From a virus (lineage: Duplodnaviria > Heunggongvirae > Uroviricota > Caudoviricetes): a DNA stretch of 64,000 nucleotides. Shown here one piece after another: positions 41,782 to 55,427 of the stretch. The stretch covers positions 71,343 through 135,342 of the IMG/VR virus record IMGVR_UViG_3300045450_000050; one strand, written 5' to 3'. A program made the translations under genes and the position numbers. How positions within the stretch are numbered: position 1 is the stretch's first letter; the number at the start of each line of letters is the position of its first letter. Under the pieces are notes generated by a model, which was given only the letters and a program-made list of their open reading frames with translations, was not told the origin of the DNA and did no database searches.

Positions 41782-43422
41782 TCACATCTTGGCGAACGCC
41801 GAGATGACCTGGGGAACGGACGAGTCGAAGCCGACCACGTCCAGGGTGCGGGGGTCCTTGGGGTCCGCGACCGAGGACCGCGAGGCGTTGGTCGCCACGA
41901 CGACGAGCTTGGCGTCGATACCCGTTTCCTTGCGGTACTTCGCCAGCTCCTCGTGCGTGTGCGCCGGGCCTGCGTAGGTCTCGTTGTCCGTCATGAGCAC
42001 GAACACGTCGACCTGGATCTTCTGCTCGCGTGCGTAGCGGATCACGCACGACACGTCGGTCATGCGGCCCGTGTGTGCCCGTGCCTCCCACGTTGCCTCC
42101 TGGAGGGTCATGCCCTTTCGGATGCTCAGCGGGTAGGTGTACGCGTCGAAGCCGATGGTGTGGACCTCGGGCTCGATGTTCGCGATAACGCAGGCCATGG
42201 CCGCGCCACCCTCGGACGCCGTCATGTTGGGCACGTCAGCGATGCGAGCACCCATCGATCCGGAGGTGTCCACGCCCACGAGGTAGCGCAGACCCGTGGG
42301 CTCTGCGAACTTGAACGCGAGATGGAACGCCTCGTCGAGCGCGGCGATGATGCGCTGGTTGGGCACCCAAGTGGCCGTCGAGCGGGCCTGGGTGGAGTGA
42401 CCGAGCGCGTACGCCTTCTGGGCGAGCAGGATCGTCATCGGGTGCAGGCGCGCCTTGGCCAGCGCGTCACGATCCGTCAGACGGTCCACCACGAGCTGCG
42501 TCTTGCCTCCGAGGGGAACGATGACACCGATGCGCGTCAGACGCGAGAGCTGGCGGAGCAGCGCGCCCAGGGGCACGTTGTTGTTCTCCAGCAGGGCCGT
42601 CCAGACCGCCTCGTTGTTCAGCGCCGACGAGGGCAGCATCTCCCACGACAGGCCGTACGTCTTGATGATCGAGATCAGCTCGGACACCTTGGCGCTGGGC
42701 GTGTTCTCCCACTCCAGGGCCTTCAGGTTGCCGGTGACAGCCTTGGGCAGCAGCACGCGCGAGGGGTCTTCGACGCGGCCGAGCGTGTAGTCCATGAGGT
42801 GGCGGAACAGCTCGTCCTCGCTCGACTTGGTGGGCCGAGCGAGCTTGATCAGGTCGGCGTGCGACCATCCCTCGCGGTTCTTGTACTTCGTGAGCTGGTA
42901 GCCGAGGCGCTCGATGTCCTTGCCCTCGTACCAGCGCTTGAACGCCTTGCGGGCACCCATACCGAAGCCCTTGCCTCCGCGAAGGTTCTTCAGGAACTCG
43001 GCGAACATGAACAGCGTCGTGCCCGTACGGCAGACCTTGTCGACCTGCTGGTACGCGTAGCTGCGCGCGGCGTCGTCCTCGGTGGTCGCGATGACCAGAG
43101 CGAGCGCGAAGATGGCGGGGTCCTGCTTGGGAGCGCGGCCCTCGACCGAGACCGAGACGATGAGATCGATCAGTTCGAACACCTTGTCGGTGCGAGCCAC
43201 GTCCTCGATGTCGCTGACGCGCTTCAGCGTCAGCTTCTGGCCGGTCTGGTAGAAGCCGCTCTCGGCACCGAGGATGAGGAAGCGCTTGATGGCTTCCATC
43301 TTGCCGACCTTGAAGACGTAGCCGCCCGCGGCGTTCTTCTTCTGCTCGGGTGCGGCCTTCTTCGTGCCGGGCGTGGTCTTCTGAACGGGTGCTCCGACCG
43401 TGCGGAGAGTGCTGTTACCCAT
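41782..43422 (-). CDS. rsr: Ro60-like TROVE-domain protein with C-terminal vWA/MIDAS domain
   Basis: 546 aa after trimming the track ORF to ATG 43422 (AAAGGA RBS); N-terminal GGYVFKVGKMEAIKRFLILGAESGFYQ, C-terminal MIDAS VGVDTSGSMG; adjacent Y-RNA-like array. Confidence 0.8.
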   Translation of the reverse strand: MGNSTLRTVGAPVQKTTPGTKKAAPEQKKNAAGGYVFKVGKMEAIKRFLILGAESGFYQTGQKLTLKRVSDIEDVARTDKVFELIDLIVSVSVEGRAPKQDPAIFALALVIATTEDDAARSYAYQQVDKVCRTGTTLFMFAEFLKNLRGGKGFGMGARKAFKRWYEGKDIERLGYQLTKYKNREGWSHADLIKLARPTKSSEDELFRHLMDYTLGRVEDPSRVLLPKAVTGNLKALEWENTPSAKVSELISIIKTYGLSWEMLPSSALNNEAVWTALLENNNVPLGALLRQLSRLTRIGVIVPLGGKTQLVVDRLTDRDALAKARLHPMTILLAQKAYALGHSTQARSTATWVPNQRIIAALDEAFHLAFKFAEPTGLRYLVGVDTSGSMGARIADVPNMTASEGGAAMACVIANIEPEVHTIGFDAYTYPLSIRKGMTLQEATWEARAHTGRMTDVSCVIRYAREQKIQVDVFVLMTDNETYAGPAHTHEELAKYRKETGIDAKLVVVATNASRSSVADPKDPRTLDVVGFDSSVPQVISAFAKM

Positions 43423-43445
43423 GGATGTCGTCCTTTCGATCAGGG

Positions 43446-43502
43446 CATAGAAAAATCCCGGGGGTGGACTGGCTGTTGGCCAGTATGGGACCCACCCCCG
43501 GG
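43446..43502 (-). terminator. intrinsic terminator between the Y-RNA-like array and rsr
   Basis: Minus-strand hairpin CCCGGGGGUGG...CCACCCCCGGG followed by AUUUUUCU. Confidence 0.6.
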
Positions 43503-43504
43503 AC

Positions 43505-43737
43505 GGGGAATCCAGACAGGAGATCGCTGCGCGAGGATCTAGGCAGTGATAACGCGGAGCTAACAGCCTGGAAAGTTTAGTGGGCAGACAGGAAACGCAA
43601 TCGGGAATGGTTGTTTGAGTTTGAGTCAAATTGATAACCCGGAAGCAGCAGCCTGCTCATGTGAAGTTGTAAGGCCCGACAGGAAACGACCCGGGAGAGT
43701 ATCACCACAAGATAACCCGGACCAGACAGCCTGGCCT
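43505..43737 (-). ncRNA. three tandem short Y-RNA-like stem modules (no tRNA-like domain)
   Basis: Each starts CAGGCUG-N-(C/G)GGUUAUC and ends CCUGUCUG, with complementary 5' and 3' arms. Confidence 0.4.
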
Positions 43738-43774
43738 TTGTGAATGAGAGAGCTTTGACCCTCTCTCACCCGAG

Positions 43775-43918
43775 AAAAATAATGTCAGACAGGAAGGCGA
43801 ACCTCGCGTTTAGGCGCTCTGCCGATTGAGCTATACCGGATTGCTCCGGCACTGGGACTCGAACCCAGAACATCCCGCTTAGAAGGCGATAACGAGATTC
43901 AGGCAGCCTGACATCTTC
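43775..43918 (-). ncRNA. Y-RNA-like ncRNA with circularly permuted tRNA-like domain (module 2)
   Basis: Minus strand: T-arm CUGGG-UUCGAGU-CCCAG, 7-bp acceptor-like stem UGCCGGA/UCCGGUA closed by GCAA loop, D-arm GCUC-AAUCGGCA-GAGC; 5' and 3' ends pair in a long imperfect stem. Confidence 0.6.
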
Positions 43919-43964: not shown

Positions 43965-44110
43965 TAGTACCGCAGACAGGGGGCGAGTTCGGAGATTTTA
44001 CGCTGCTCTACCAACTGAGCTACCCCCCGATGTGGTCGGGGGACCTGGACTCGAACCAGGGACCAACGGCTCCGGATGCGATAACCGAGTCTCTTCAGCC
44101 TGCGGAAGTC
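43945..44110 (-). ncRNA. Y-RNA-like ncRNA with circularly permuted tRNA-like domain (module 1)
   Basis: T-arm CCUGG-UUCGAGU-CCAGG, acceptor-like stem UCCCCCG/CGGGGGG closed by 7-nt loop, D-arm GCUC-AGUUGGUA-GAGC, flanking complementary arms. Confidence 0.55.
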
Positions 44111-47862: not shown

Positions 47863-47963
47863 GGGTCGGTCCTCCAGGGGACATGCCGAACAAGGGAGTA
47901 TCGGCACAGGGAGTATCGGCCTGGCATGTGAACGTGCGGGTGCTCGATATACGAGACTTGCTG

Positions 47964-48036
47964 TGGAAACGGGGAGACTCGAACTCCCGACATCCTGCTT
48001 GCAAAACAGGCGCTCTACCAACTGAGCTACGCCCCC
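47964..48036 (-). tRNA. tRNA-Ala(UGC)
   Basis: Cloverleaf by eye; G3:U70; anticodon loop UUUGCAA. Confidence 0.75.
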
Positions 48037-48124
48037 ATGGGTGATGCTGAAGTGAGTCACCGATCAGTTCGAGAGTCCGGTTATCTACGAGAGGGCCCCT
48101 CCGGGCGTCCCACTCACTTCTGCG

Positions 48125-48197
48125 TGGCCAGGGCTGGACTTGAACCAGCGACCCCCGTCTTATCAGGACGGTGCTCTACCTGCTGAGCTACATGACC
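48125..48197 (-). tRNA. tRNA-Ile(GAU)
   Basis: Anticodon loop CUGAUAA; one acceptor mismatch. Confidence 0.65.
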
Positions 48198-48198
48198 G

Positions 48199-48278
48199 TG
48201 GAGAGGCAGGCGGGAATCGAACCCGCGTTCTCATCCGCTACAGGTGTCCGGGTTAGAACTCCGGCCTGATACTGCCCC
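48199..48278 (-). tRNA. atypical tRNA-like gene with encoded CCA (possible Arg(UCU)); aberrant D-arm region
   Basis: Canonical T-arm GCGGG-UUCGAUU-CCCGC, 7-bp acceptor stem and CCA; anticodon-like loop GUUCUAA; no standard D-arm. Confidence 0.35.
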
Positions 48279-48293
48279 GTGATTCTGAAATTG

Positions 48294-48363
48294 AAGCGCT
48301 AGCGGGAGTCGAGCCCGCAACCAAGACTTTGCAGGTCCTGTTCGCCTACCCGGTCATAGCGCC
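48294..48363 (-). tRNA. tRNA-Cys(GCA)
   Basis: Anticodon loop CUGCAAA. Confidence 0.6.
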
Positions 48364-48364
48364 G

Positions 48365-48436
48365 TAGGCCCCCCGGGGATCGAACCCGAGACCCCTGGAT
48401 TAAAAGTCCGGTGCTCTGCCACTGAGCTAGAGGCCC
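48365..48436 (-). tRNA. tRNA-Lys(UUU)
   Basis: Anticodon loop CUUUUAA. Confidence 0.7.
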
Positions 48437-48437
48437 G

Positions 48438-48508
48438 CACCGGAAGCTGGATTCGAACCAACGTGAACGGCTCCAAAGGCCGTCGTCCTGCCACTAAACG
48501 ATTCCGGT
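48438..48508 (-). tRNA. tRNA-Gln(UUG)
   Basis: Anticodon loop CUUUGGA; A1:U72. Confidence 0.65.
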
Positions 48509-48512
48509 AAAG

Positions 48513-48584
48513 CACCCCATCCTGGTTACGATCCAAGGACTTCTGCTCCAGAGGCAGACGTGTTGCCGATTACACCAACGGGGT
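48513..48584 (-). tRNA. tRNA-Gln(CUG)
   Basis: Anticodon loop CUCUGGA; T-loop AUCGUAA. Confidence 0.65.
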
Positions 48585-48657
48585 ATAGCTCTTTGTCGCC
48601 AGGTGAGCAATGCCTGGAGGGGACCTATCAACCCCTCGCCAGTCGTGCGCGCAACGT

Positions 48658-48728
48658 GCCCCACGCAGGTATCGAACCCGCGACCTCCAGTTCCGGAAAC
48701 TGGCGCTCTTCCACTGAGCTAGAAGGGC
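48658..48728 (-). tRNA. tRNA-Arg(CCG)
   Basis: Anticodon loop UUCCGGA. Confidence 0.65.
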
Positions 48729-48792
48729 AAAGAAGGTCCGGGGTGCTACGAATGTGGCCGAAGCCTAGTCAATGGATTGTCGAACCTTCTGG

Positions 48793-48864
48793 TGCCCTCG
48801 GCAGGAGTCGAACCTACATCCCTGGTTCCGTAGACCAGTGTCGTGTCCGTTGGACGACGAGGGC
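48793..48864 (-). tRNA. tRNA-Arg(ACG)
   Basis: Anticodon loop CUACGGA. Confidence 0.75.
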
Positions 48865-48928
48865 GTCGATGGTGGGTCATCACCCTGTGTGGGACTCGTC
48901 GTAGGGGCCCCTACCCTCTTATGTTGCG

Positions 48929-49001
48929 CTCCCCGAGCTGGACTCGAACCAACGACCCTGCGGTTAACAGCCGCGCACTCTACCAACTGAGCTATCGGGG
49001 A
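48929..49001 (-). tRNA. tRNA-Asn(GUU)
   Basis: Anticodon loop CUGUUAA. Confidence 0.75.
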
Positions 49002-49096
49002 ATACGATCAGTTCACGCCACGCGACTTCCGAGCCGGAATCGAACCGACTCAGAGGGGGTCTCGAACCCCATTCTGATCAGAGCCACCAGGCTCTT

Positions 49097-49169
49097 GTGG
49101 GCCGTGAGGGACTCGAACCCCCGCGCATCTCCGTGTAAAGGAGCAGCTCTGCCGCTGAGCTAACGGTCC
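49097..49169 (-). tRNA. tRNA-Val(UAC)
   Basis: Anticodon loop UUUACAC; A3-C70 mismatch. Confidence 0.65.
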
Positions 49170-49240
49170 ATGTGTCGCGCTACCCGTCCCCATGGGCCAG
49201 GTCTGCATTCCCTTGATGCGCGACTACCAAGGTTCCAGCG

Positions 49241-49314
49241 TGCCGACGACAGGAATCGAACCCGCGTCCTCCTTATTACAAGTAAGGTGCTCGGCCAGCG
49301 TGAGCTACATCGGC
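49241..49314 (-). tRNA. tRNA-Thr(UGU)
   Basis: Anticodon loop CUUGUAA. Confidence 0.7.
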
Positions 49315-49379
49315 GTGCGAGGCGGCATGATTTGTGACCTTTGCGCTTCTCTCCGGGACGGTCAGGCGGAGACCTCTTG

Positions 49380-49494
49380 TGTGCGTGACAGACGGGGAGC
49401 GAGTCCTGGGGTGCCCACCAATCGGGCGTATGACCTAGCGGCCACAGGTGGAGTCGAACCATCGATAACCAGAAGCTCTTCAGCCTGTCGTGCG
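49380..49494 (-). ncRNA. Y-RNA-like ncRNA with permuted tRNA-like domain (module 6) inside the tRNA cluster
   Basis: 5' GACAGGCUGAAGAGCUUCUGGUUAUCG matches the rsr-proximal modules; T-arm GAUGG-UUCGACU-CCACC, acceptor-like UGUGGCC/GGUCAUA closed by GCUA, D-arm GCCC-GAUUGGU-GGGC. Confidence 0.5.
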
Positions 49495-49568
49495 TGCAGT
49501 GAACGGGGTCCGAACCCGTGACCTCCTCGTTGGCAACGAGGTGCTCTGCCAGATTGAGCTACCACTAC
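49495..49568 (-). tRNA. tRNA-Gly(GCC)
   Basis: Anticodon loop UUGCCAA. Confidence 0.7.
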
Positions 49569-49658
49569 GGAGTGTGGGACGGGCTCCAACTTCGCCCTTC
49601 CTGAGGCCCACACGGCCCCAACGGATTTCGGATCGCGATCCAGGCATTCCTACCTTCG

Positions 49659-49732
49659 AGAGGTATACGAGACTCGAACTCGTTCTATTCCACTTTGGAA
49701 GAGTGGTGCCGCACCATATCGGCATATACCCC
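49659..49732 (-). tRNA. tRNA-Gly(UCC)
   Basis: Anticodon loop CUUCCAA. Confidence 0.7.
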
Positions 49733-49788
49733 AGAAGAGTCTCGACACCGCTAAACGCAGTCGTCACCACTTGCAATGTCGGACCCCG

Positions 49789-49860
49789 TGCTCCCCCGGA
49801 ATTTCGAAATCCGGACCCTCCGGTTAAGAGCCGGATGCTCTGCCTCTGAGCTAGAGGAGC
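49789..49860 (-). tRNA. tRNA-Lys(CUU)
   Basis: Anticodon loop CUCUUAA. Confidence 0.65.
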
Positions 49861-50050
49861 GTTAGGTGGGGCCCAAGCGAGTGCGCTTACTCGCCCGGCC
49901 CCGGAGATTGTCGGATCTCACCCTGCCACACCATTCAGTGGCCTAAACCTGCCCTGTAACCCAAGGCAGGATTATGGGCCAGACTCTGCGTCTGATGACA
50001 GCCAGGATCTCGCCTGGTCACAAACGTTGGGCTGACGACCCTCGGTGACT

Positions 50051-50084
50051 CGATTAAAGCATGTCACGCGCTAACGCGCAACTC
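50051..50084 (-). promoter_or_regulatory. promoter-like motif copy upstream of the main tRNA cluster
   Basis: CGATTAAAGCATGTCACGCGCTAACGCGCAACTC. Confidence 0.5.
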
Positions 50085-50085
50085 G

Positions 50086-50171
50086 CGGAAGAAGGAGGGC
50101 ACGATCCCCACACCGTTGCCGGTGCCTCCGGTTAGCAACCGGGCTACAGGACCCCCCGTAGATCGTCTTCC
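50086..50171 (-). tRNA. tRNA-Ser(GCU), class II, atypical T-loop
   Basis: Anticodon loop UUGCUAA; variable arm CACCG-GCAA-CGGUG; T-loop AUCGUGC. Confidence 0.5.
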
Positions 50172-50175
50172 ATGG

Positions 50176-50259
50176 CGGAGAGAGGAGGGCACGATCCCCA
50201 CACCTTGCAGTGCTGCACGCTTTCCAAGCGTGAGTCGGGACCTCCCGATCTTCACTCTC
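50176..50259 (-). tRNA. tRNA-Ser(GGA), class II, atypical T-loop
   Basis: Anticodon loop UUGGAAA; shares the GGAGGGCACGAUCCCCACACC segment with the neighbouring Ser tRNA. Confidence 0.5.
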
Positions 50260-50275
50260 CATGCATGAAGACTCG

Positions 50276-50363
50276 GCGGAAGGTGGGAGGGTCGAACTCC
50301 CACGCCCTTTCGAGCAAGCACTTTTCGAGAATGCCGCCGCCGCCAACTATCGGCTGGACCTTC
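50276..50363 (-). tRNA. tRNA-Ser(CGA), class II
   Basis: Anticodon loop CUCGAAA; variable arm closed by GAAA; T-arm GGGAG-UUCGACC-CUCCC. Confidence 0.6.
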
Positions 50364-50574
50364 CGCCAAACCTTCATGCCTCTGTGGAATTAGAAAAGCC
50401 CCGGACTCTTCGAGTCTGGGGCTGTCCGTTGCTCAGCTTTCGCTGGCAGGTCCTATCGCAGGACAGCCCTATGTACCGATGACGGCATTTGCCGTCCCGG
50501 TCTTGGACTGTCGCGAGCTGAGGAACATGTTGATCACCGTACATGCTCCTCAGCTCACGTGCAACTCATCGCGA

Positions 50575-52707
50575 TCAGACCGTGTCCACGGCCAGGACAG
50601 CGAACGCGTTCCAGCGACCTGTGGTGTCGCTGTTGATGCGCGAGAACCCGGCGAAGCCCGTGGCGTTCGTGACACCGGTGTTGGTGATGTTGGTGATTAC
50701 CGTGCCGACATCGGTCGCGCTCGTGGCCTTGACGATGGAGATCGCCGTGCCCTTCATGCGAAGGCCTACCCAGTCGCCTACCGCGAACGTGCCTGCGGGG
50801 GCAGTCGCAATCGACGTAGTTCCGTTCGCCAGGTATGCCGACCCGTCACTGCGAAGGTAGAGCCGGTACTGCGTGGCTCCGGAAGAGGTCACCGTGGAGC
50901 GGCGTGCATCGATGGTGTAGAGCGTCGTCCCGGACGCCGTAGGCATGACAGCGATCTGACCACGTGCCTCGTAGTCGGCCTGGCCCACGGCGAGGAACTG
51001 ACCACCCGTGACTCCGGTCGGGGCGAGGGTGTTGTCGGTGATCTGCCAGGCAGCGGCGTTCTCCTGCCACGAGATTGCCGAACCACCGAACGCGCGGTCG
51101 GTCGCCGAGGAACCGACCGTGGTCGAGTTCGCGCGGTCGAACGAGTCGGAGTACAGCACGTTCATCGACCCGCCGACAGGAGCAGCAGACACCGTGTAGG
51201 CCAGCGTCTTGCTGTTGTTGCCCGTGCTGTTGGTAGCCGTGAACGTGACGTTGCCCGTACCTGCCGTCGTCGGCTTTCCAGAGATGACGCCAGCGCTGGA
51301 GATGGACAGGCCAGCGGGAAGGCCCGACGCGGTCACAGTCGATGTGTCGCCCGTGTACGTGATCGTCTGGGAGAAGTCCACGCCCACGGTCATCGAGTTC
51401 AGGCTGGTCGTGGTGATCGTCGGAGCCGTGCCGGTAGGCGGTGTAGTCGCCGCGCCAGCCGCCACGAGAGCGCCGCCCAGGAAGCTCGTGCGCAGGATGT
51501 CCGCCATGAAGTCATGGCCCTGGTCGTTCATGTGGATCTCGTCGGTGTCGATGTAGTCCCACGGGTCTGCCCCGGCCGCGCCCGTGACGCCCTGGCGGGC
51601 CCAGTCGTCGGAGTTGTCCGTGACCACCACGTTGGTAGCTGCTGCGGCAATCTCCTTCAGGGCGGTGAGGTAGTCCGCCCATGGAGCCACGCGGTTGGTC
51701 AATGCGGCGCTGTCGAAGCGGGGGTAGGTGTGGATCAGGACGTGGACGTGCTGTACGCCGATGGCAGCATCGAGTGCCGCGATCTCGTTCTGGAGGTTGC
51801 TCTTGTACGTGGCCACGGGCACGCCGTTGCCGTAGTCGTTCGCACCGATCATGTGCACGAGCACGCGCGGGTTCAGCGCAGCGATCTGGTTGCGCGTTGT
51901 CGAGCTGATGTACGGCGTGGCACCGTTCTGGTTGCCAGAACGCGAACCAGAGATACCCGCGTTCACACCGAAGATGCCTGCGCCCGAAGGGGCCGACGAC
52001 ACAGCCTGAGCGAGCGTCTGCACGCCCGTCGGGTGCGATCCAGAAGGGAGGGGGTAGGCCGCACGGATGAATGCCATGGTCTTGTTCACGTAGCGGTTCT
52101 CAGCCGCGCTGGCGTTGTTGCCTGCGGTCGACGAAGAGCCCAGCCACACGATGGTGACCGGGGACGAGGTCAGGCGCTTGGACATTGCACCTCGGAAGAT
52201 GCTGATGGCGTCAGCGGTTGTGTCCACCGACCCGCCACCGCTACCAGCAGGCCCGGCTGGTCCCTGGATGCCCTGCGGACCTGTAGCCCCAGTCGCTCCC
52301 GTCGCTCCGGTGTCGCCCTTCGGTCCCGTTGCCCCTGTTGCTCCGGTGTCGCCCTTGGGTCCCTGAGGACCTGTTGCTCCGGTGTCGCCCTTCGGTCCCT
52401 GAGGTCCGACTGTTCCCGACCCGGACCCGGACCCGGCTGGTCCCTGGATGCCCTGTGGTCCCTGGGGTCCTGTCGCTCCGGTGTCCCCCTTGGGTCCTGT
52501 TGCTCCCGTGGCCCCGGCAGCGCCAGTGTCACCCTTCACTCCCTGGGCTCCGGCAGCGCCAGTGTCCCCCTTGGGTCCCTGAACGCCCTGGATGCCCTGA
52601 GGCCCCTGAGGGCCGGTGGCTCCCGTAGCTCCGGTGTCGCCCTTGGGCCCCTGTGGTCCAATCGAACCAGACCCATCACCCGAAACAGGTACGCGTGTAA
52701 AAGGCAT
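50575..52707 (-). CDS. tail fibre/minor tail protein with N-terminal collagen-like Gly-X-Y repeats and SGNH/GDSL-type hydrolase domain
   Basis: 710 aa; ~55 G-X-Y triplets; SGNH blocks [28 protein letters not shown]; beta-rich C-terminus. Confidence 0.85.
52170..52650 (-). repeat. collagen-like Gly-X-Y triplet repeats (coding, within the tail fibre gene)
   Basis: Repeated GGxCCxxxxGGxxCC nucleotide periodicity encoding [13 protein letters not shown]. Confidence 0.8.
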
Positions 52708-52711
52708 CTGC

Positions 52712-52954
52712 TTATCCGATCTCGATCACACGGACATCCGTGGCAGCTTGGGTGGAGACGACGTAGATGTCATCGAGTGAGCCCGATGTGGCGAACTCCA
52801 TGATCATCTGAGGCATAAGTTCGAGGCCGGTGTCTGGAGACACCGTGCCCTGAGTATCGATGTAAATCGTTCCCGGCCCTCGGTTTTGAATGACGGGACG
52901 AGCGCGACCACTCGACACGACCTTCTGCGGAGTTGTCCCTACGATCATGCGCAT
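52712..52954 (-). CDS. hypothetical tail-associated protein (80 aa)
   Basis: Track ORF. Confidence 0.65.
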
Positions 52955-52957
52955 GAG

Positions 52958-53509
52958 CTATGCCTCCTGAACCCAGAGTTCGTAGCCGCCAGATCCGTTC
53001 GACTTGTACCACAGCGCCGGTCCCGAGGTTGTGGGCGCGACAGTGCCTCCCACGAAGACCTGCTGCGGAGCAGTGATGGGCTGGGGCGTGACGTTGCCTC
53101 CACCGGACACGGGCACGAGAAGCGCGATGTCCTGTGCTGAACTGCTCGGCACCGCGATGTCGAGCTGGGGGAAATCGACGATCTGACCGTTCAAGGACAG
53201 CCGGAACGTCACACGGTAGACCCAGCCCGTAGGCGAGGTTGGTCCGTTCGTGGCGACCAGATACACACCCTTGACGCCGTTGAGCGAGAGGTCTCCCGCG
53301 GCGTCGAGCGTGGTCACGATAGGCGTAGGCGCGATGATCGTAGGCGGGGTCGAGCCCAGAACCTTCACGGGCCCGACGAGCGGAGTGAACGTGACGGTTC
53401 CCTCCATGGGCAGCACGTCAGGGTACTCGCCGGAGTCCCCGCTGTCGGCAACGATGGCTGCGAAACGTCCGGTCACCCGTCCGTACGCCAGTCCTGGCAT
53501 GTCAGCCAT
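52958..53509 (-). CDS. minor tail-like protein (183 aa)
   Basis: Track ORF; beta-rich, Pro/Thr-rich. Confidence 0.7.
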   Translation of the reverse strand: MADMPGLAYGRVTGRFAAIVADSGDSGEYPDVLPMEGTVTFTPLVGPVKVLGSTPPTIIAPTPIVTTLDAAGDLSLNGVKGVYLVATNGPTSPTGWVYRVTFRLSLNGQIVDFPQLDIAVPSSSAQDIALLVPVSGGGNVTPQPITAPQQVFVGGTVAPTTSGPALWYKSNGSGGYELWVQEA

Positions 53510-53554
53510 AGGGGCTCCTCTGTCAGGCCTACCTCAATATCGGGAGTATCGGAC

Positions 53555-53869
53555 TTAGGACTTCCGTCGCCGCGCTAGCCGAACGATTCCCGTCGTCACC
53601 AGGACGATGATGCCGACAGCGAGGAAGCCCACGATGTACGGCGTGAGCGGGGCGACATGATGCAGCGCCGACTCTTCGTTGGGGAAGATGCCCGGCGAAT
53701 CAGGACGGGGCCAGTGGTGGTCTGTGGGCGCGTGAGACACTTCCTGGCTAGTCCCTGCGGCCTTGTGCATGAGAGTCGTCGGGGAACCCGCATGCGCCGT
53801 CACCGAGCCCGCGAGCGCGAGGGAGATGCCGAGAAGAGATCCCAGCACCATGTTGGTGACGGCTCTCAT
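53555..53869 (-). CDS. secreted/membrane-anchored protein (signal peptide + C-terminal TM, RRRKS tail)
   Basis: Track ORF 53555..54049 trimmed to ATG 53869 because its 5' part overlaps tRNA genes. Confidence 0.55.
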   Translation of the reverse strand: MRAVTNMVLGSLLGISLALAGSVTAHAGSPTTLMHKAAGTSQEVSHAPTDHHWPRPDSPGIFPNEESALHHVAPLTPYIVGFLAVGIIVLVTTGIVRLARRRKS

Positions 53870-53912
53870 GTCCTGAGTATCGGACTTCAGTCCGCATGCG
53901 ACAGAATACGAA

Positions 53913-53989
53913 GTGGTAGCGCTCCAGGGACTCGAACCCTGACTGGCGTGCACCTCATGCACGTGCCTCTTCCATTGGGCTAGAGCGCC
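53913..53989 (-). tRNA. tRNA with anticodon GAG (Leu?), class I shape, CCA encoded
   Basis: Anticodon loop AUGAGGU; short variable loop, unusual for Leu. Confidence 0.5.
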
Positions 53990-54063
53990 GTACCCCTCCC
54001 CGGATTCGAACCGGGAACCTCCGCGCCCTGAACGCGTCGCCTCTACCATTTGGGCTAGAAGGG
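53990..54063 (-). tRNA. tRNA with anticodon CAG (Leu?), class I shape
   Basis: Anticodon loop UUCAGGG. Confidence 0.45.
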
Positions 54064-54076
54064 CTCACTGTGTTGC

Positions 54077-54150
54077 GTGGACAACGCCGGAGTCGAACCG
54101 GTCAACCTCTCGTGTTTCAAACGAGCGCTCTACCAACTGAGCTTGAAGTC
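54077..54150 (-). tRNA. tRNA-Phe(GAA), two acceptor-stem mismatches (possible pseudo-tRNA)
   Basis: Anticodon loop UUGAAAC; U5-U68 and U6-U67 mismatches. Confidence 0.5.
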
Positions 54151-54152
54151 CG

Positions 54153-54237
54153 TGGTGCCAGAGGAGGGAGTCGAACCCTCACAGCCGAAGCGGGTGATTT
54201 ACAGTCACTTGCCCTCGCCAATGGGACGGTGCCCTGA
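54153..54237 (-). tRNA. tRNA-Tyr(GUA), class II, CCA encoded
   Basis: Anticodon loop CUGUAAA; variable arm with UUCG loop. Confidence 0.55.
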
Positions 54238-54257
54238 CATATGTATTCAGTTGTTGC

Positions 54258-54330
54258 GTAGAGCGTGCGGGATTCGAACCCGCGCTGTTGGCGTGAAAAA
54301 CCAATGACCTAGGCCGCTAATCGAACGCTC
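54258..54330 (-). tRNA. tRNA-Glu(UUC)
   Basis: Anticodon loop UUUUCAC. Confidence 0.55.
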
Positions 54331-54331
54331 C

Positions 54332-54402
54332 GTAGCCCACGAGGGTTTCGATCCCTCGACATCAGATTGAGAATCTGACGTGTTCCCATTACACCAGTGG
54401 GC
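54332..54402 (-). tRNA. tRNA-Glu(CUC)
   Basis: Anticodon loop UUCUCAA; T-loop AUCGAAA. Confidence 0.65.
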
Positions 54403-54418
54403 CATGTTCAGTTGTTGC

Positions 54419-54491
54419 GCGAACCTGACGGGTTTCGATCCCGCTACCTTCCGCTCGACAGGCGGATGCTCTCCCAATTGAGCTACAGGTC
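54419..54491 (-). tRNA. tRNA-Asp(GUC)
   Basis: Anticodon loop CUGUCGA; T-loop AUCGAAA. Confidence 0.7.
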
Positions 54492-54569
54492 CATGGGGTG
54501 GATGACGGGTACTGCCCCCGCTACAAGCAGTTCCACAAACTGCTGCCTCGCTTTTCGGCCTCAAACACC

Positions 54570-54641
54570 GTACGGATGGGGAGGATCGAACTCCCGGTCT
54601 CCTGATCCCAAATCAGGCGGCATACCGCTTGCCTACACCCG
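54570..54641 (-). tRNA. tRNA-Pro(UGG)
   Basis: Anticodon loop UUUGGGA; A1:U72. Confidence 0.6.
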
Positions 54642-54656
54642 TATATTGAATTGTCC

Positions 54657-54707
54657 TGTACGCGAAGACGACCCCCCGGATATCTCCGAGGGGTCGTCTT
54701 CGCGTAC
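54657..54707. terminator. 18-bp perfect hairpin at the edge of the tRNA cluster (terminator or processing signal)
   Basis: GTACGCGAAGACGACCCC-N15-GGGGTCGTCTTCGCGTAC. Confidence 0.4.
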
Positions 54708-54777
54708 GCGCGCTTCAGACCCCCCGGATGGGCTCCAGGAGGTAATCGAAGTGCTCGAACGTGTTCATGCTCTGACC

Positions 54778-54927
54778 TTATGACGCGAGTAGCTGCGGTG
54801 TCAAGTCAACATCCGCATGAGCTGTCTCCTGATGCTCCAGGAGGGCCCACAGACCCGATGGCTGGCCGTGCAGAGTGCCTTCGTCGATGAAGACCTCGCC
54901 GCACCAGCAGGCGCGCTCTGTGCCCAT
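54778..54927 (-). CDS. small Cys-containing hypothetical protein (49 aa)
   Basis: Trimmed from track ORF 54778..55032. Confidence 0.35.
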   Translation of the reverse strand: MGTERACWCGEVFIDEGTLHGQPSGLWALLEHQETAHADVDLTPQLLAS

Positions 54928-54931
54928 GGGC

Positions 54932-55138
54932 TCAGATGTTGGGGGTGGTGTGAGTCGAGATGAAGTGGTCCTCCAGGAGATCCACTGCGGCGCTCTTGGT
55001 GCCTGCGACCTGAAGGGTGTCGCAGAGCGCACACTGAGCCTCCCAGCCCAGCTCCTCGTCCTTGGTGACGGTGCCGAGATCTACGTCGACCTCTCCCACC
55101 TCGGCGTGGACGGTTCCCTGGCGATTGACGCTGACCAT
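54932..55138 (-). CDS. small hypothetical protein (68 aa)
   Basis: AAGGGAG RBS before ATG 55138. Confidence 0.5.
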   Translation of the reverse strand: MVSVNRQGTVHAEVGEVDVDLGTVTKDEELGWEAQCALCDTLQVAGTKSAAVDLLEDHFISTHTTPNI

Positions 55139-55210
55139 GATGGCTCCCTTGGCTCGGGAGGAGTATCGGCGCATGCAGAAGGGCCCCAGATCTCTCTGAG
55201 GCCCTTCGTT

Positions 55211-55283
55211 GCAGGGGGTGCAGGATTTGAACCTACGCCTATCGGGTTGGAGCCGAGCGTCTTTGGCCGCTGAACTAACCCCC
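55211..55283 (-). tRNA. tRNA-Trp(CCA)
   Basis: Anticodon loop CUCCAAC; perfect acceptor GGGGGGU/ACCCCCU. Confidence 0.65.
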
Positions 55284-55334
55284 CAGATGGCACCGTGGTT
55301 CGATCCGACGAAAGATGACCCCCACGGTGCTCGT

Positions 55335-55416
55335 AGCCGTCTCGGGACTCGAACCCGAACGAGGCGAACCCCTACGCATTTTGAGTGCGCTCTGTCTACC
55401 CATTCCAGCAGACGGC
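55335..55416 (-). tRNA. tRNA-Leu(CAA), class II
   Basis: Anticodon loop CUCAAAA; variable arm with UUCG loop; perfect acceptor stem. Confidence 0.65.
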
Positions 55417-55427
55417 CGATGAAGACG

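Follow-up and report, generated by a model that had tools for sequence, protein, structure and literature searches.

Composition of the tRNA array

Which of the many tRNA-like sequences in this phage locus are genes, and what are those that depart from the cloverleaf? A preliminary description had reported at least 28 tRNA genes here, including atypical members and tRNA-like debris. The observation itself is confirmed and its interpretation partly supported: the number of genes, their positions, their anticodons and the oddities noted are largely correct, as is the reading as a large phage tRNA repertoire. The interval is a tRNA gene array of a large actinobacterial phage (∼135 kb, 64% G+C), whose relative Microbacterium phage Magritte has a tRNA array syntenic with that of our window, the whole 64,000-nucleotide stretch analysed. 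The best explanation, which we hold to be probable, is that this is the array of a Magritte-related phage and includes, at 48202-48278 on the minus strand, a tRNA-Arg(UCU) with a rewired core. Comparisons below draw on related loci, designated by L numbers; their sampling is biased, since many were reached via a Ro60 anchor.

ARAGORN at default settings identified 24 minus-strand tRNAs in two clusters, 47963-50364 and 53914-55417, with anticodons exactly as first listed. The Rfam tRNA model matched 22 of the 24 at its gathering score. In the first cluster these are tRNA-Ala(UGC) (47963-48036; 67.6 bits), a canonical tRNA-Ile(GAU) (48124-48197; 63.9 bits), Lys(UUU) (48364-48436), Gln(UUG) (48437-48508), Gln(CUG) (48512-48584), canonical Arg(CCG) (48656-48728) and Arg(ACG) (48790-48864, CCA encoded), Asn(GUU) (48928-49001), Val(UAC) (49097-49169), Thr(UGU) (49240-49314), Gly(GCC) (49494-49568), Gly(UCC) (49658-49732; 35.4 bits) and Lys(CUU) (49788-49860). 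The second cluster contributes Leu(GAG) (53914-53989, CCA encoded; 46.5 bits), Leu(CAG) (53990-54064; 45.4 bits), Phe(GAA) (54077-54151; 47.9 bits), Glu(UUC) (54258-54331; 54.1 bits), Glu(CUC) (54332-54403; 60.9 bits), Asp(GUC) (54419-54492; 61.2 bits), Pro(UGG) (54570-54642; 64.6 bits), Trp(CCA) (55211-55284; 50.9 bits) and a class II Leu(CAA) with a long variable arm (55333-55417; 49 bits). tRNA-Cys(GCA) (48293-48363), with T loop CUCGACU, reached 29.6 bits in E-value mode only. The class II tRNA-Ser(CGA) (50275-50364), with a long D region, had no match to the Rfam tRNA model even in that mode; orthologues with compensatory acceptor changes occur in L011 and in Magritte, where the gene is annotated.

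Lowering the ARAGORN threshold to 90% (-ps90) gained two genes, both with CCA encoded. tRNA-Ser(GGA) (50173-50260; the ARAGORN call spans 50173-50255) aligns with L006 6727-6819 at 89% identity. The class II tRNA-Tyr(GUA) (54153-54238), called only at this setting, has an atypical expanded D region and a partial Rfam match of 20 bits; it shares 90% identity with L011 4507-4612, and its acceptor, anticodon and T stems show compensatory changes. tRNA-Ser(GCU) (50086-50171) was read from the sequence and aligns with L006 6909-6994 at 87.5% identity. Together with an 80-nt gene lacking a normal D arm these make 28, and a tRNA-His-like gene brings the total to 29, all on the minus strand and covering 19 amino acids, with no tRNA-Met among them. 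At neither threshold did ARAGORN return a tmRNA, a credible intron or a permuted tRNA, three possibilities raised at the outset.

The tRNA genes are co-oriented with the majority of flanking genes, and the array lies between a HicA-like region and an endolysin/Ro60 region. It serves both common G/C-ending and rare A-ending codons, and so would seem to be a near-complete back-up set for translation, not a patch for codon bias. AGA accounts for just 3% of the Arg codons within the window, a figure that we counted against the tRNA-Arg(UCU) reading of 48202-48278.

Unusual cloverleaf tRNAs

Three oddities, namely tRNA-Leu genes with short variable arms, U·U mismatches in tRNA-Phe and T loops with A54, recur in related phages and are features rather than parsing errors. 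The variable loop of Leu(CAG) and Leu(GAG) is only 5 nt long, so the class-I-like shape first described stands. Mis-parsing or non-standard decoding had been offered to account for it, but the same short-variable-arm genes (anticodons CAG, GAG or CAA) are found in Magritte, Cece, L006, L010 and L011. Each carries the Leu-type D loop AAUGGUAGA and A73, the CUN readers also carry G37, and there is no sign of non-standard decoding. The acceptor mismatches noted in tRNA-Phe, U5·U68 and U6·U67, are present in identical form in Magritte, L006 and L011. The three non-canonical T loops were also found as reported: AUCGAAA (A54) in Asp and Glu(CUC), AUCGUAA in Gln(CUG), and AUCGUGC (A54/U58) in Ser(GGA) and Ser(GCU). 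The Glu(CUC) loop is shared with Magritte and L003, and L010 has AUCGUAA.

The spacer between Pro and Asp is occupied by a conserved tRNA-His(GUG)-like gene (54494-54569, minus strand), which was missed by ARAGORN, by Rfam and in the preliminary description. The cloverleaf has G-1:C73 and its CCA is encoded; the D loop, GAAAAGCGA, lacks GG and the T loop is GGCAGUA, both non-consensus. Homologues in L011, L010 and Magritte are 86-91% identical over 77 nt, the anticodon stem covarying around an invariant UUGUGGA loop. Model R2, built from this gene, also matched canonical tRNA-His at 45-52 bits.

Structured RNAs between and beside the tRNA genes

Three segments had been taken for orphan T-arm-containing pieces. 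All exist as structured segments, but they are heterogeneous. The first (48588-48655, minus strand), an RNA 64-68 nt long, folds into four helices, has two 9-nt loops and lacks a canonical T loop; Magritte and L011 carry copies of 93-94% identity, in which 2 pairs change in a compensatory way. It has no Rfam family, and matches to model R3 were confined to the copies in the window, Magritte and L011. The second (48729-48789, minus strand) is a 61-nt hairpin (z = -2.1 against shuffles) with no homologue in the related loci; the corresponding spacer in Magritte is 1 nt long. The third (49002-49096, minus strand) is much more stable than shuffled sequence (z = -4.5). Within a closing stem of 6 bp it holds a small hairpin besides two hairpins with T loops; it has no homologue among ten related loci and is possibly a tRNA-derived remnant. 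To call such sequences debris is too sweeping, given the conserved 48588-48655 RNA, the gene without a D arm and the tRNA-His-like gene; only the two lineage-specific segments are without homologues and may be debris.

Two further minus-strand spacers are conserved. At 49440-49493 the motif ACGACAGGCUGAAGAG is followed by a T-arm-like hairpin; the segment falls short of a full tRNA, is common to Magritte and L009, and its T-like stem covaries. An RNA of ∼88 nt (49569-49657), abutting the 3' end of tRNA-Gly(UCC), contains a pseudoknot: one hairpin covaries, as does the loop-to-3'-tail helix (6/6), across homologues in six phages. It matches no Rfam family. Both this RNA and that at 48588-48655 are conserved structured RNAs.

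Outside the tRNA interval, two true Y RNAs of YrlA-like type adjoin a Ro60 gene (41782-43422, minus strand) whose 546-aa product carries TROVE and vWA domains (Pfam TROVE 6e-42, vWA_Ro60 6e-47) and is their presumed partner. Y RNA 1 (43977-44088, minus strand), with a T arm, a closed acceptor-like hairpin and a D arm, scored 43.3 bits (E = 3e-7) with Rfam YrlA, short of the gathering score of 69; it is 84-85% identical in L006 and L008, with 8 compensatory pairs. Y RNA 2 (43780-43913, minus strand; 32.4 bits) has a long closing stem and compensatory changes at 20 of 38 consensus pairs.

A probable tRNA-Arg(UCU) without a D hairpin

The CCA-bearing gene of 80 nt, described initially as having no normal D arm, is real: the RNA of 77 nt is encoded by 48202-48278 (minus strand) and the CCA by 48199-48201. 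A canonical tRNA has a D hairpin between its acceptor and anticodon stems, whereas here there is none. From the 5' end, a 7-bp acceptor stem is followed by U8, A9 and U, and then by a 4-bp outer stem stacked on an anticodon stem of five positions (four Watson-Crick pairs and a loop-closing A·C), with an ACA bulge in the 3' strand and the anticodon loop GUUCUAA. The strand 3' of U8-A9-N thus pairs with the strand 3' of the anticodon stem, giving a single long bulged hairpin. A single-stranded connector of 13-14 nt, here UAGCGGAUGAGAAC, joins the hairpin to a normal T arm and bears equivalents of A14, R15, G18, G19, A20 and Y48. Nothing is unusual about the acceptor stem, the T arm or the anticodon loop (U33, UCU, A37). 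ARAGORN did not find the gene and the Rfam tRNA model gave it only 18.6 bits; model R1 scored it at 93.4 bits, against at most 32 bits for canonical tRNAs.

The gene belongs to a conserved family of ∼77-nt tRNAs without a D hairpin, marked by heavy covariation. In these a 3-4 bp stem stacks right against the anticodon stem, and the stretch 3' of the anticodon arm is a connector resembling a D loop (U-A14-R15…G18G19A20…Y48). In an alignment of 7 sequences, 93.9% of cells were paired, 13 of 21 pairs showed compensatory changes and none of 500 shuffles did as well. Two larger alignments were fitted to the model. With 17 sequences, 20 of 23 pairs were compensatory, U8:A14 was invariant and R15:Y48 was GC in 10, AU in 7 and broken in none. 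With 28 rows (27 true members), 92.7% were paired, against 38-50% in slid controls, and 21 of the 23 pairs proposed were compensatory, including the R15:Y48 tertiary pair, for which the 7 members retrieved by a pattern fixing A15 and U48 are not independent evidence. The innermost outer-stem pair is often unpaired in this alignment (21/28), as is the outermost anticodon-stem pair (12/28); the helix is therefore interrupted and its register near the A-rich bulge uncertain.

Members scored 43-93 bits with R1, whose training loops (UCU and GAU) bias it mildly toward Arg-like loops. All 25 non-Ile members have Arg anticodons (UCU 14, CCU 3, UCG 4, ACG 4), counting the 24 Arg rows of the 28-row alignment and L003 7147-7228, which at 29.6 bits lies inside the canonical range. 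Three members have the Ile anticodon GAU. Every Arg member keeps GGA, and with it A20; the Ile members have GGU or GGG. Family members were missed by ARAGORN and the Rfam tRNA model, and in GenBank their genes are mis-named or without annotation. The Magritte annotation was made with tRNAscan-SE 2.0 and Aragorn (PMC11663251), and the Magritte homologues of the odd genes are unannotated. Standard tools fail on these genes, and the comparative evidence argues against their being pseudogenes.

Proposed function and significance of the rewired tRNAs

Their genomic settings suggest that rewired genes take the Arg or Ile role in their phages. L003 has four of them and no ARAGORN-called tRNA-Arg at the locus examined; in Magritte and L011 a rewired Ile gene is the sole tRNA-Ile of the region examined; and in L100 a rewired gene fills an exact tRNA-sized gap in an array of 25 tRNAs. 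In L006, L009 and L010 the slot after tRNA-Cys is taken by a canonical tRNA-Arg(UCU), which also fits that role; since close relatives use a canonical gene, the rewired form is not required.

From the covariation at one tertiary pair and the conserved bases, we infer that the RNA would still be L-shaped, the connector acting as the D loop (U8:A14, R15:Y48, and G18G19 with the T loop). The stacked D and anticodon stems would be replaced by the long hairpin, so that the core would be topologically isomeric to that of a normal tRNA. A20 is the main identity element of bacterial ArgRS, from studies in E. coli and T. thermophilus; host ArgRS would charge the 48202-48278 tRNA via A20 and C35/U36, and the product would decode AGA. 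To our knowledge, bacterial-type tRNAs have been held always to be cloverleaves. It is against this view that the rewired D arm matters: these tRNAs form a conserved class of arginine tRNAs that apparently has so far gone undescribed.

tRNA gene content and genomic setting of the array

With default settings ARAGORN identified 24 tRNA genes in the window, all on the minus strand and arranged in two clusters (47963-50364 and 53914-55417). The Rfam tRNA model confirmed 22 of these 24 at its gathering score; in E-value mode it gave the tRNA-Cys 29.6 bits and did not match the tRNA-Ser(CGA). At an ARAGORN threshold of 90% a tRNA-Ser(GGA) and a tRNA-Tyr(GUA) were added, together with two obviously spurious calls, while reading of the sequence gave a third serine gene (GCU, 50086-50171) and a CCA-bearing gene of 77 nt at 48202-48278. 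These genes make up the 28 counted in the preliminary description, whose large tRNA repertoire with atypical members is confirmed as an observation, and we now add a 29th, a tRNA-His-like gene at 54494-54569. The anticodons of the array cover 19 amino acids; neither ARAGORN nor Rfam revealed a tRNA-Met in the window. Nothing credible in the way of tmRNA, introns or permuted genes was returned by ARAGORN with the -m and -i options, the intron calls being plus-strand artefacts across coding sequence.

The window has a G+C content of 64%, and about 75 of 81 crude gene calls are co-oriented with the tRNAs. An endolysin with PG-binding repeats and an amidase domain adjoins the tRNA-Ala, and a collagen-repeat/GDSL-lipase protein lies between the two tRNA clusters. 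The latter (50575-52707, minus strand; 710 aa) combines collagen triple-helix repeats, a GDSL lipase/esterase domain and an Ig-like domain, and could be a LysB-like lysis or tail-associated esterase. Scans for promoters and terminators gave counts not above those of shuffled controls.

For comparison we used the arrays of the phages Magritte, Cece and Big4, of five metagenomic relatives (L006-L011) and of many Ro60-anchored IMG/VR loci; a search of IMG/VR for relatives with the endolysin as anchor found none. Among cultured phages, Microbacterium phage Magritte is the nearest relative (a singleton of 133 kb, with a Ro60 that is 62% identical), and no close DNA relative was found in the phage collection, where the best match was 82% over 207 bp. 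The Magritte array, with 26 annotated tRNAs, has its gene order in common with that of the window, namely Leu-Trp ... Pro-Asp-Glu-Glu-Tyr-Phe-Leu-Leu ... Ser followed by Lys-Gly-Gly-Thr-Val-Asn-Arg-Arg-Gln ... Lys-Cys ... Ala. Like the arrays of large actinophages in general (Magritte, the Cece/Big4 group, Mildred21, cluster C mycobacteriophages), that of the window is dense and co-oriented, falls in the range of 25-45 tRNAs and is near endolysin and Ro-like genes, whereas its three Ser genes, its canonical Ile gene and its lineage-specific spacer elements set it apart. Arrays of this kind are commonplace in large actinophages. Judged by the codon usage of the window, tRNAs are present for the commonest codons (CUG, CUC, GAG, AAG, CAG, AUC) and also for rare A-ending codons (AAA 6%, CAA 10%, GUA 4%, and AGA, 3% of Arg codons). 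Because the set serves the commonest and the rarest codons alike, simple compensation for codon bias is not supported, and a general, host-independent tRNA supply, for instance against depletion or cleavage of host tRNAs, would fit better.

A probable tRNA-Arg gene with a rewired D region

The preliminary description had drawn attention to a CCA-bearing gene at 48199-48278 that lacks a normal D-arm. The gene is real and has no room for a D hairpin. Read 5' to 3' on the minus strand (48202-48278, with CCA at 48199-48201), it consists of GGGGCAG, UAU, CAGG, the anticodon hairpin CCGGA GUUCUAA CCCGG, ACA, CCUG, the connector UAGCGGAUGAGAAC, the T arm GCGGG UUCGAUU CCCGC, CUGCCUC, U and CCA. GGGGCAG and CUGCCUC form an acceptor stem of 7 bp with one G.U, followed by U and CCA, and all seven acceptor pairs covary in an alignment of 28 rows; the T arm is canonical, its stem being 100% paired over the same rows; and the anticodon loop is ordinary, with U33, UCU and A37. 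A D hairpin is missing, as only UAU and a 4-nt strand stand ahead of the anticodon stem. The CAGG strand pairs with CCUG in a helix that encloses the anticodon hairpin, and a 14-nt D-loop-like connector links this long hairpin to the T stem. The gene scores 18.6 bits against the Rfam tRNA model (RF00005), below the gathering threshold of 29 bits.

Compared with a normal tRNA, the D loop and the 5' D-stem strand would together have been moved from before to after the anticodon arm, and all helical strands and loop nucleotides could take their usual places in the L shape. Three links would be rewired: position 9 would connect with the upper end of the descending strand of the D stem, the anticodon stem, where it ends, would pass through an A-rich bulge to the lower end of the ascending strand, and the D loop would run on into position 48/49. 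The positions joined by these three links are near one another in canonical tRNA structures. A weak spot of the fold is the junction of the two stems, where two pairs are often unpaired in the 28-row alignment.

An ordinary cloverleaf that has been mis-parsed, because of an unusual D arm or an intron, is a very improbable account of 48202-48278. The Magritte copy does reach 31.9 bits as a tRNA in Rfam, and two copies in phage Mildred21 carry the GenBank names “tRNA-Phe(gaa)” and “tRNA-OTHER”, as a misread cloverleaf might. However, the gap between acceptor and anticodon stem amounts to only 3 nt plus the 4-nt strand, so that a D hairpin cannot fit, and the 14-nt connector is too short for an anticodon arm. 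Relaxed ARAGORN searches give the homologues conflicting anticodons (cct, tag, gtg, gct), intron-aware ARAGORN makes no call at 48202-48278, and sliding the pairing register on the 28-row alignment cuts pairing from 93% to 38-50%.

Departures from the cloverleaf are known elsewhere. Animal mitochondrial tRNA-Ser(AGY) and the synthetic mini-HisT likewise have no D hairpin and a longer anticodon helix, which keeps the distance from anticodon to acceptor end, and D-arm-less RNAs can be accepted by the translation machinery (PMC4013460, PMC9427863, PMC11551756). Those RNAs have lost the D loop, and with it the contact to the T loop, and take a Y or boomerang shape, whereas the rewired tRNA, at a normal 77 nt and with a fully canonical T arm, retains the equivalents of A14, R15, G18, G19 and A20, moved 3' of the anticodon arm. 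The 8/5 tRNA-Sec, tRNA-Pyl and allo-tRNAs are also natural and functional departures from the 7/5 cloverleaf (PMC7609411), but they are still four-armed, with the D hairpin 5' of the anticodon arm; the same review lists no phage or bacterial tRNA that lacks a D hairpin in that position.

Distribution and covariation of the rewired family

Homologues of exactly 77 nt are present in Magritte, Cece, Big4 and the metagenomic locus L008, and a sister type with a GAU (Ile) anticodon was found in Magritte, L008 and a second metagenomic locus, L011. In an alignment of seven sequences the proposed fold was 93.9% paired, with compensatory changes at 13 of 21 pairs, and none of 500 shuffles was as good. 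A covariance model built from these seven sequences scored members at 82-93 bits, versus at most 32 bits for every canonical tRNA of the arrays. With this model we found four rewired genes (CCU, UCG, UCU, ACG) in locus L003, where there is no tRNA-Arg among the 24 tRNAs called by ARAGORN, six more in three other loci (L018, L038 and L042), and three in Streptomyces phage Mildred21. A loose pattern scan of bacterial genome contigs, filtered with the same model, identified seven on MAG contigs assigned to five phyla, one of which fills a tRNA-sized gap in an array of 25 tRNAs; an exact-pattern scan for the actinophage-type connector gave 0 matches in the viral, metagenome and genome contig collections. 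The class occurs in Microbacterium and Streptomyces phages and also in phage-like tRNA arrays on contigs assigned to Acidobacteriota, Chloroflexota, Spirochaetota, Armatimonadota and Alphaproteobacteria.

The 28-row alignment comprises 27 members and one canonical tRNA-Gly let in by the threshold; 92.7% of its cells are paired, and 21 of 23 pairs show compensatory changes. U33 and A37 are present in 27 of 27 members, and the anticodon stem, of 4-5 bp, covaries. All non-Ile members have an Arg anticodon (UCU 14, CCU 3, UCG 4, ACG 4), a count that includes L003 7147-7228, whose 29.6 bits fall in the canonical range. A candidate Levitt pair joins the connector base that follows U-A to the base immediately ahead of the T stem. 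It is G:C in 10 rows and A:U in 17, the search pattern having fixed seven of the latter; without these there are 10 G:C and 10 A:U, and the unbiased set of 17 sequences has 10 G:C and 7 A:U. The equivalents of U8 and A14 are invariant across the family, and a GG corresponding to G18G19 is always present, extended to GGA in all Arg members and to GGU or GGG in the Ile members. In the Arg members the A would correspond to A20, the classical ArgRS identity base. On this comparison of sequences, the rewired tRNAs have candidate equivalents of the U8:A14 and R15:Y48 pairs, which appear to be kept, and of the G18G19 of the elbow.

We lean, by a modest degree, towards the view that these genes constitute a functional class of non-cloverleaf elongator tRNAs in bacterial phages, mainly for arginine and sometimes for isoleucine, which would be charged and used by bacterial synthetases, EF-Tu and ribosomes. 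A different role, as decoys or sponges that mimic the anticodon arm and elbow of tRNA-Arg and take no part in decoding, seems unlikely to us. Candidate targets would be host anticodon nucleases, enzymes that modify tRNA and RNA quality-control factors such as Ro60/PNPase, and phage tRNAs are known to counter host defences that cleave tRNA (PMC11555353, PMC12409363). The near confinement of the class to one amino-acid identity would suit a decoy, as would the many carrier phages that encode Ro60 and Y RNAs as well; the Ro60 association, however, is a sampling artefact of the locus collection, since L100 and other MAG contigs were found without a Ro60 anchor. Moreover, the members keep a covarying acceptor stem of 7 bp, a discriminator and often an encoded CCA, which a pure anticodon-arm decoy would not need, and in L003, Magritte and L011 rewired genes are the sole Arg or Ile tRNAs of otherwise broad sets.

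Conserved and lineage-specific segments within the array

Three further segments of the array had been described as tRNA-like debris. This may hold for two of them, 48729-48789 and 49002-49096, for which no homologue was found in ten related loci, whereas the third, 48588-48655, and two other segments, 49569-49657 and 49440-49493, are conserved. The segment at 48588-48655 (minus strand) is a four-helix RNA of 64-68 nt with two 9-nt loops, UUGAUAGGU and CAUUGCUCA. Magritte and L011 carry it at 93-94% identity, two pairs showing compensatory changes; it is absent from the other loci searched, and a covariance model built from it finds the RNA in only three phages. It has no Rfam match and can be rejected as a tRNA on account of its 9-nt loops, there being no 7-nt loop compatible with U33/R37 and no T-loop consensus.

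The segment at 49569-49657 (minus strand) belongs to an RNA of about 88 nt that is present in six phages, always 0-1 nt from the 3' end of a tRNA, and that combines a covarying hairpin with a covarying pseudoknot helix between a hairpin loop and the 3' tail. No Rfam family matches it. An HDV-like (theta) or hammerhead ribozyme was rejected, as there is no P1 partner for the 5' end, no CUGAUGA core and no Rfam match (PMC10879173). A role in tRNA 3' processing is an idea that we put forward for this RNA. At 49440-49493, after the tRNA-Gly(GCC), a conserved motif with a T-arm-like hairpin is shared by three phages, for which RNAalifold gave no consensus structure.

The two lineage-specific segments bear on whether the gene without a D arm and the other segments that escaped calling are tRNA pseudogenes in decay, produced by duplication and deletion in a fast-evolving array. 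ARAGORN and the Rfam tRNA model make no call at these sites, the arrays of relatives contain homing-endonuclease insertions and chimeric tRNA remnants (for example L008 311-763), and 48729-48789 and 49002-49096 are without homologues, all of which decay would explain. It would not explain the 27 homologues of 48202-48278, from Microbacterium and Streptomyces phages and unrelated MAG contigs, which keep every helix by compensatory changes and retain U33, R37, an Arg or Ile anticodon, GGA and R15:Y48, nor the His-like gene, which stays 86-91% identical between phages that share only 50-62% identity in Ro60. Such conservation is unlike the behaviour of pseudogenes and therefore argues against decay, which we regard as quite improbable overall, although it may account for 48729-48789 and 49002-49096. 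The latter segment contains two T-loop hairpins and folds far better than shuffled sequence (z = -4.5), and its most economical reading would be as a tRNA-derived remnant.

Other features of the spacers were noted. In L008 an Endonuclease_7/HNH-type gene (311-940) is inserted in the tRNA array beside a chimeric Ala/Ile tRNA remnant, and HNH genes lie between tRNAs in Magritte and Cece too; homing endonucleases appear to reshuffle these phage arrays. A motif GCAACA(A/C)... occurs 3' of the tRNAs for Asp (54404-54418), Glu-UUC (54239-54257), Phe (54065-54076) and Asn (48914-48927), all on the minus strand, and in Magritte as well, and may be a processing signal. The spacer 48865-48927 (minus strand), with the palindrome GUAGGGGCCCCUAC, recurs at other positions in the arrays of L009, L010, L011 and Magritte with 82-90% identity, and on this pattern behaves like a small repeated or mobile spacer module. 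Between the tRNA-Ser(GCU) and the tRNA-Lys(CUU) there is a tRNA-free stretch of 220 nt (49861-50083, minus strand) that is 70% identical to L006 6995-7219; its portion 49861-49985 is strongly structured (z = -4.0), and the stretch ends in a G+C-rich hairpin without a U tract.

Other atypical tRNAs

The tRNA-Leu(CAG) and tRNA-Leu(GAG) genes at 53914-54064 are shaped like class I tRNAs, for which mis-parsing had been suggested. Both are confident calls (45-46 bits) with a variable loop of 5 nt and no class II arm, as is the case in at least five relatives: short-arm tRNA-Leu (CAG, GAG, CAA) recurs in Magritte, Cece, L006, L010 and L011. All copies have A73 and a Leu-type D loop (CAAAUGGUAGA or CAAUGGAAGA), with G37 in the CUN readers, and because the architecture recurs with these features we consider the parse correct and the suspicion of an artefact unfounded. 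Some relatives have a long-arm tRNA-Leu for the same anticodon. A73 and the Leu-type D loop are the identity set of E. coli LeuRS, and bacterial LeuRS has been reported not to need the long variable arm; for the latter reason the simplest reading would be that the short-arm genes keep an ordinary leucine identity. Class I tRNA-Leu of animal mitochondria similarly places a Leu anticodon on a short-variable-loop scaffold, but the genes of the window differ from it in their bacterial Leu-type D loop, A73 and G37. To our knowledge, bacterial and phage tRNA-Leu are otherwise class II.

Two further peculiarities remarked on earlier are borne out by relatives. The acceptor mismatches of the tRNA-Phe, U5.U68 and U6.U67, are conserved in four phages beside a compensatory change at 3-70, and the non-canonical T loops are real, the A54 loops AUCGAAA and AUCGUAA recurring in orthologues. 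The T loop AUCGUGC of Ser(GGA/GCU), together with AUCAUCC in Magritte, represents a swap of U54/A58 to A54/U58. The tRNA-Tyr has an expanded D region; an uncalled L011 gene matches it at 90% identity, and three of the stems show compensatory changes.

The apparent spacer between the Pro and Asp genes, 54494-54569, is the His-like gene, which has counterparts in L011, L010 and Magritte. It forms a cloverleaf of standard size with G-1:C73 (GGUG...CACC, with CCA directly after) and an encoded CCA; its GUG-anticodon loop UUGUGGA is invariant in the 4 phages, and the anticodon stem covaries. The D loop GAAAAGCGA, without GG, and the T loop GGCAGUA depart from the consensus and are invariant in 4 of 4 copies, and neither ARAGORN nor Rfam calls the gene. 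Canonical tRNA-His genes score 45-52 bits with a covariance model built from it, which also recovers a similarly unusual tRNA-Asp from L011, and in L006 a canonical tRNA-His occupies the slot of the His-like gene. Sequences resembling tRNA-Asp(GUC), with non-consensus T loops and missed by ARAGORN, are present at L011 4200-4275 and L006 5242-5317, in arrays otherwise without a tRNA-Asp. Loop-divergent tRNAs seem to be common in this phage group.

Ro60 and Y RNAs

A Ro60 gene, identified by matches to the TROVE and vWA domains, is located at 41782-43422 on the minus strand. Two YrlA-like RNAs lie on the same strand 360-670 nt upstream of its start, at 43977-44088 (43.3 bits) and 43780-43913 (32.4 bits), both scores being below the Rfam gathering score of 69. 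By their cmscan alignments and by covariation in six phages, both have the order T arm, closed hairpin, D arm, and both are conserved in relatives with extensive covariation; the second has a clear covarying closing stem, while that of the first was not recovered by RNAalifold. Y RNAs placed in this way beside Ro60 have been described from bacteria and mycobacteriophages (PMC4201824). Non-coding sequence is also conserved in a third stretch, 43423-43779, with 79% identity to Magritte, and a promoter-like TTGACT-18-AATAAT is located between the two Y RNAs (43963-43934). Two GenBank annotations, the “tRNA-Arg(tct)” of Magritte (L001 10029-10105; 76028-76104) and the “tRNA-Ser(cga)” of Big4 (L013 14199-14266; 100198-100265), overlap the tRNA-like module of YrlA homologues and are probably mis-annotations.

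With Ro60 only 4.3 kb from the array, the tRNA-like pieces of the latter could be taken for YrlA Y RNAs that partner the phage Ro60, the more so as YrlA RNAs are tRNA mimics (PMC4201824) and there are weak Rfam YrlA matches within the array (48173-48227, 48977-49049 and 54096-54215). We find this scarcely credible. The in-array matches reach at most 25 bits against the gathering score, and since each lies over a bona fide tRNA they reflect only T and D arms, whereas the real YrlA-like RNAs sit directly upstream of Ro60. YrlA Y RNAs (RF02553; Chen et al. 2014) do resemble the rewired tRNAs in being permuted tRNA mimics, found in the same phages beside Ro60 and with two examples in the window, but the permutation is the opposite one: in YrlA the anticodon stem is opened, the acceptor is closed and there is no anticodon loop, while in 48202-48278 the acceptor ends are open, CCA is present and there is an anticodon loop, features that already contradict a Y RNA. 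The YrlA-like RNAs explain none of the odd genes of the array.

Annotation status and significance of the rewired class

Rewired genes are not found by ARAGORN in either bacterial or mitochondrial mode, and for 17 of them mitochondrial mode and an 80% threshold gave either nothing or calls that were inconsistent. The annotation of Magritte, made with tRNAscan-SE 2.0 and Aragorn, lists 26 tRNAs, among which neither the two rewired genes of this phage nor its His-like gene appears; in ten records of cultured Microbacterium and Streptomyces phages there is no annotation under the BLAST homologues of the rewired gene. One of the three Mildred21 copies is unannotated in GenBank. The other two are probably mis-annotated, the “tRNA-Phe(gaa)” (L094 5368-5443; 91367-91442) being a rewired tRNA-Arg(UCG) and the “tRNA-OTHER” (L094 380-454) a rewired tRNA-Arg(UCU). 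A full-text literature search, with most subscription journals outside it, found no description of a phage or bacterial tRNA without a D hairpin, nor does a phage case figure in a 2020 review of non-canonical tRNAs (PMC7609411). The rewired class is probably new, and this conserved group of tRNA-Arg and tRNA-Ile genes appears to have gone unrecognised so far. It is directly testable because it is present in cultured phages, namely Magritte, Cece, Big4, A3Wally, Zooman and Mildred21.

Should the rewired fold prove real and functional, bacterial ArgRS, RNase P, the CCA enzyme, EF-Tu and the ribosome would be seen to tolerate another backbone topology in nature, and ready-made, orthogonal-looking scaffolds would be at hand for genetic-code engineering. 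A blind spot in tRNAscan-SE, ARAGORN and Rfam would also be exposed, and phage tRNA counts and calls of “missing Arg/Ile/His” would be underestimates or mis-annotations, as with the “tRNA-Phe(gaa)” of Mildred21. That rewiring allows escape from a host factor recognising the body of tRNA-Arg is pure speculation, but the finding, if true, would pose a question open to testing, namely why it is arginine tRNAs that have been rewired in phages.
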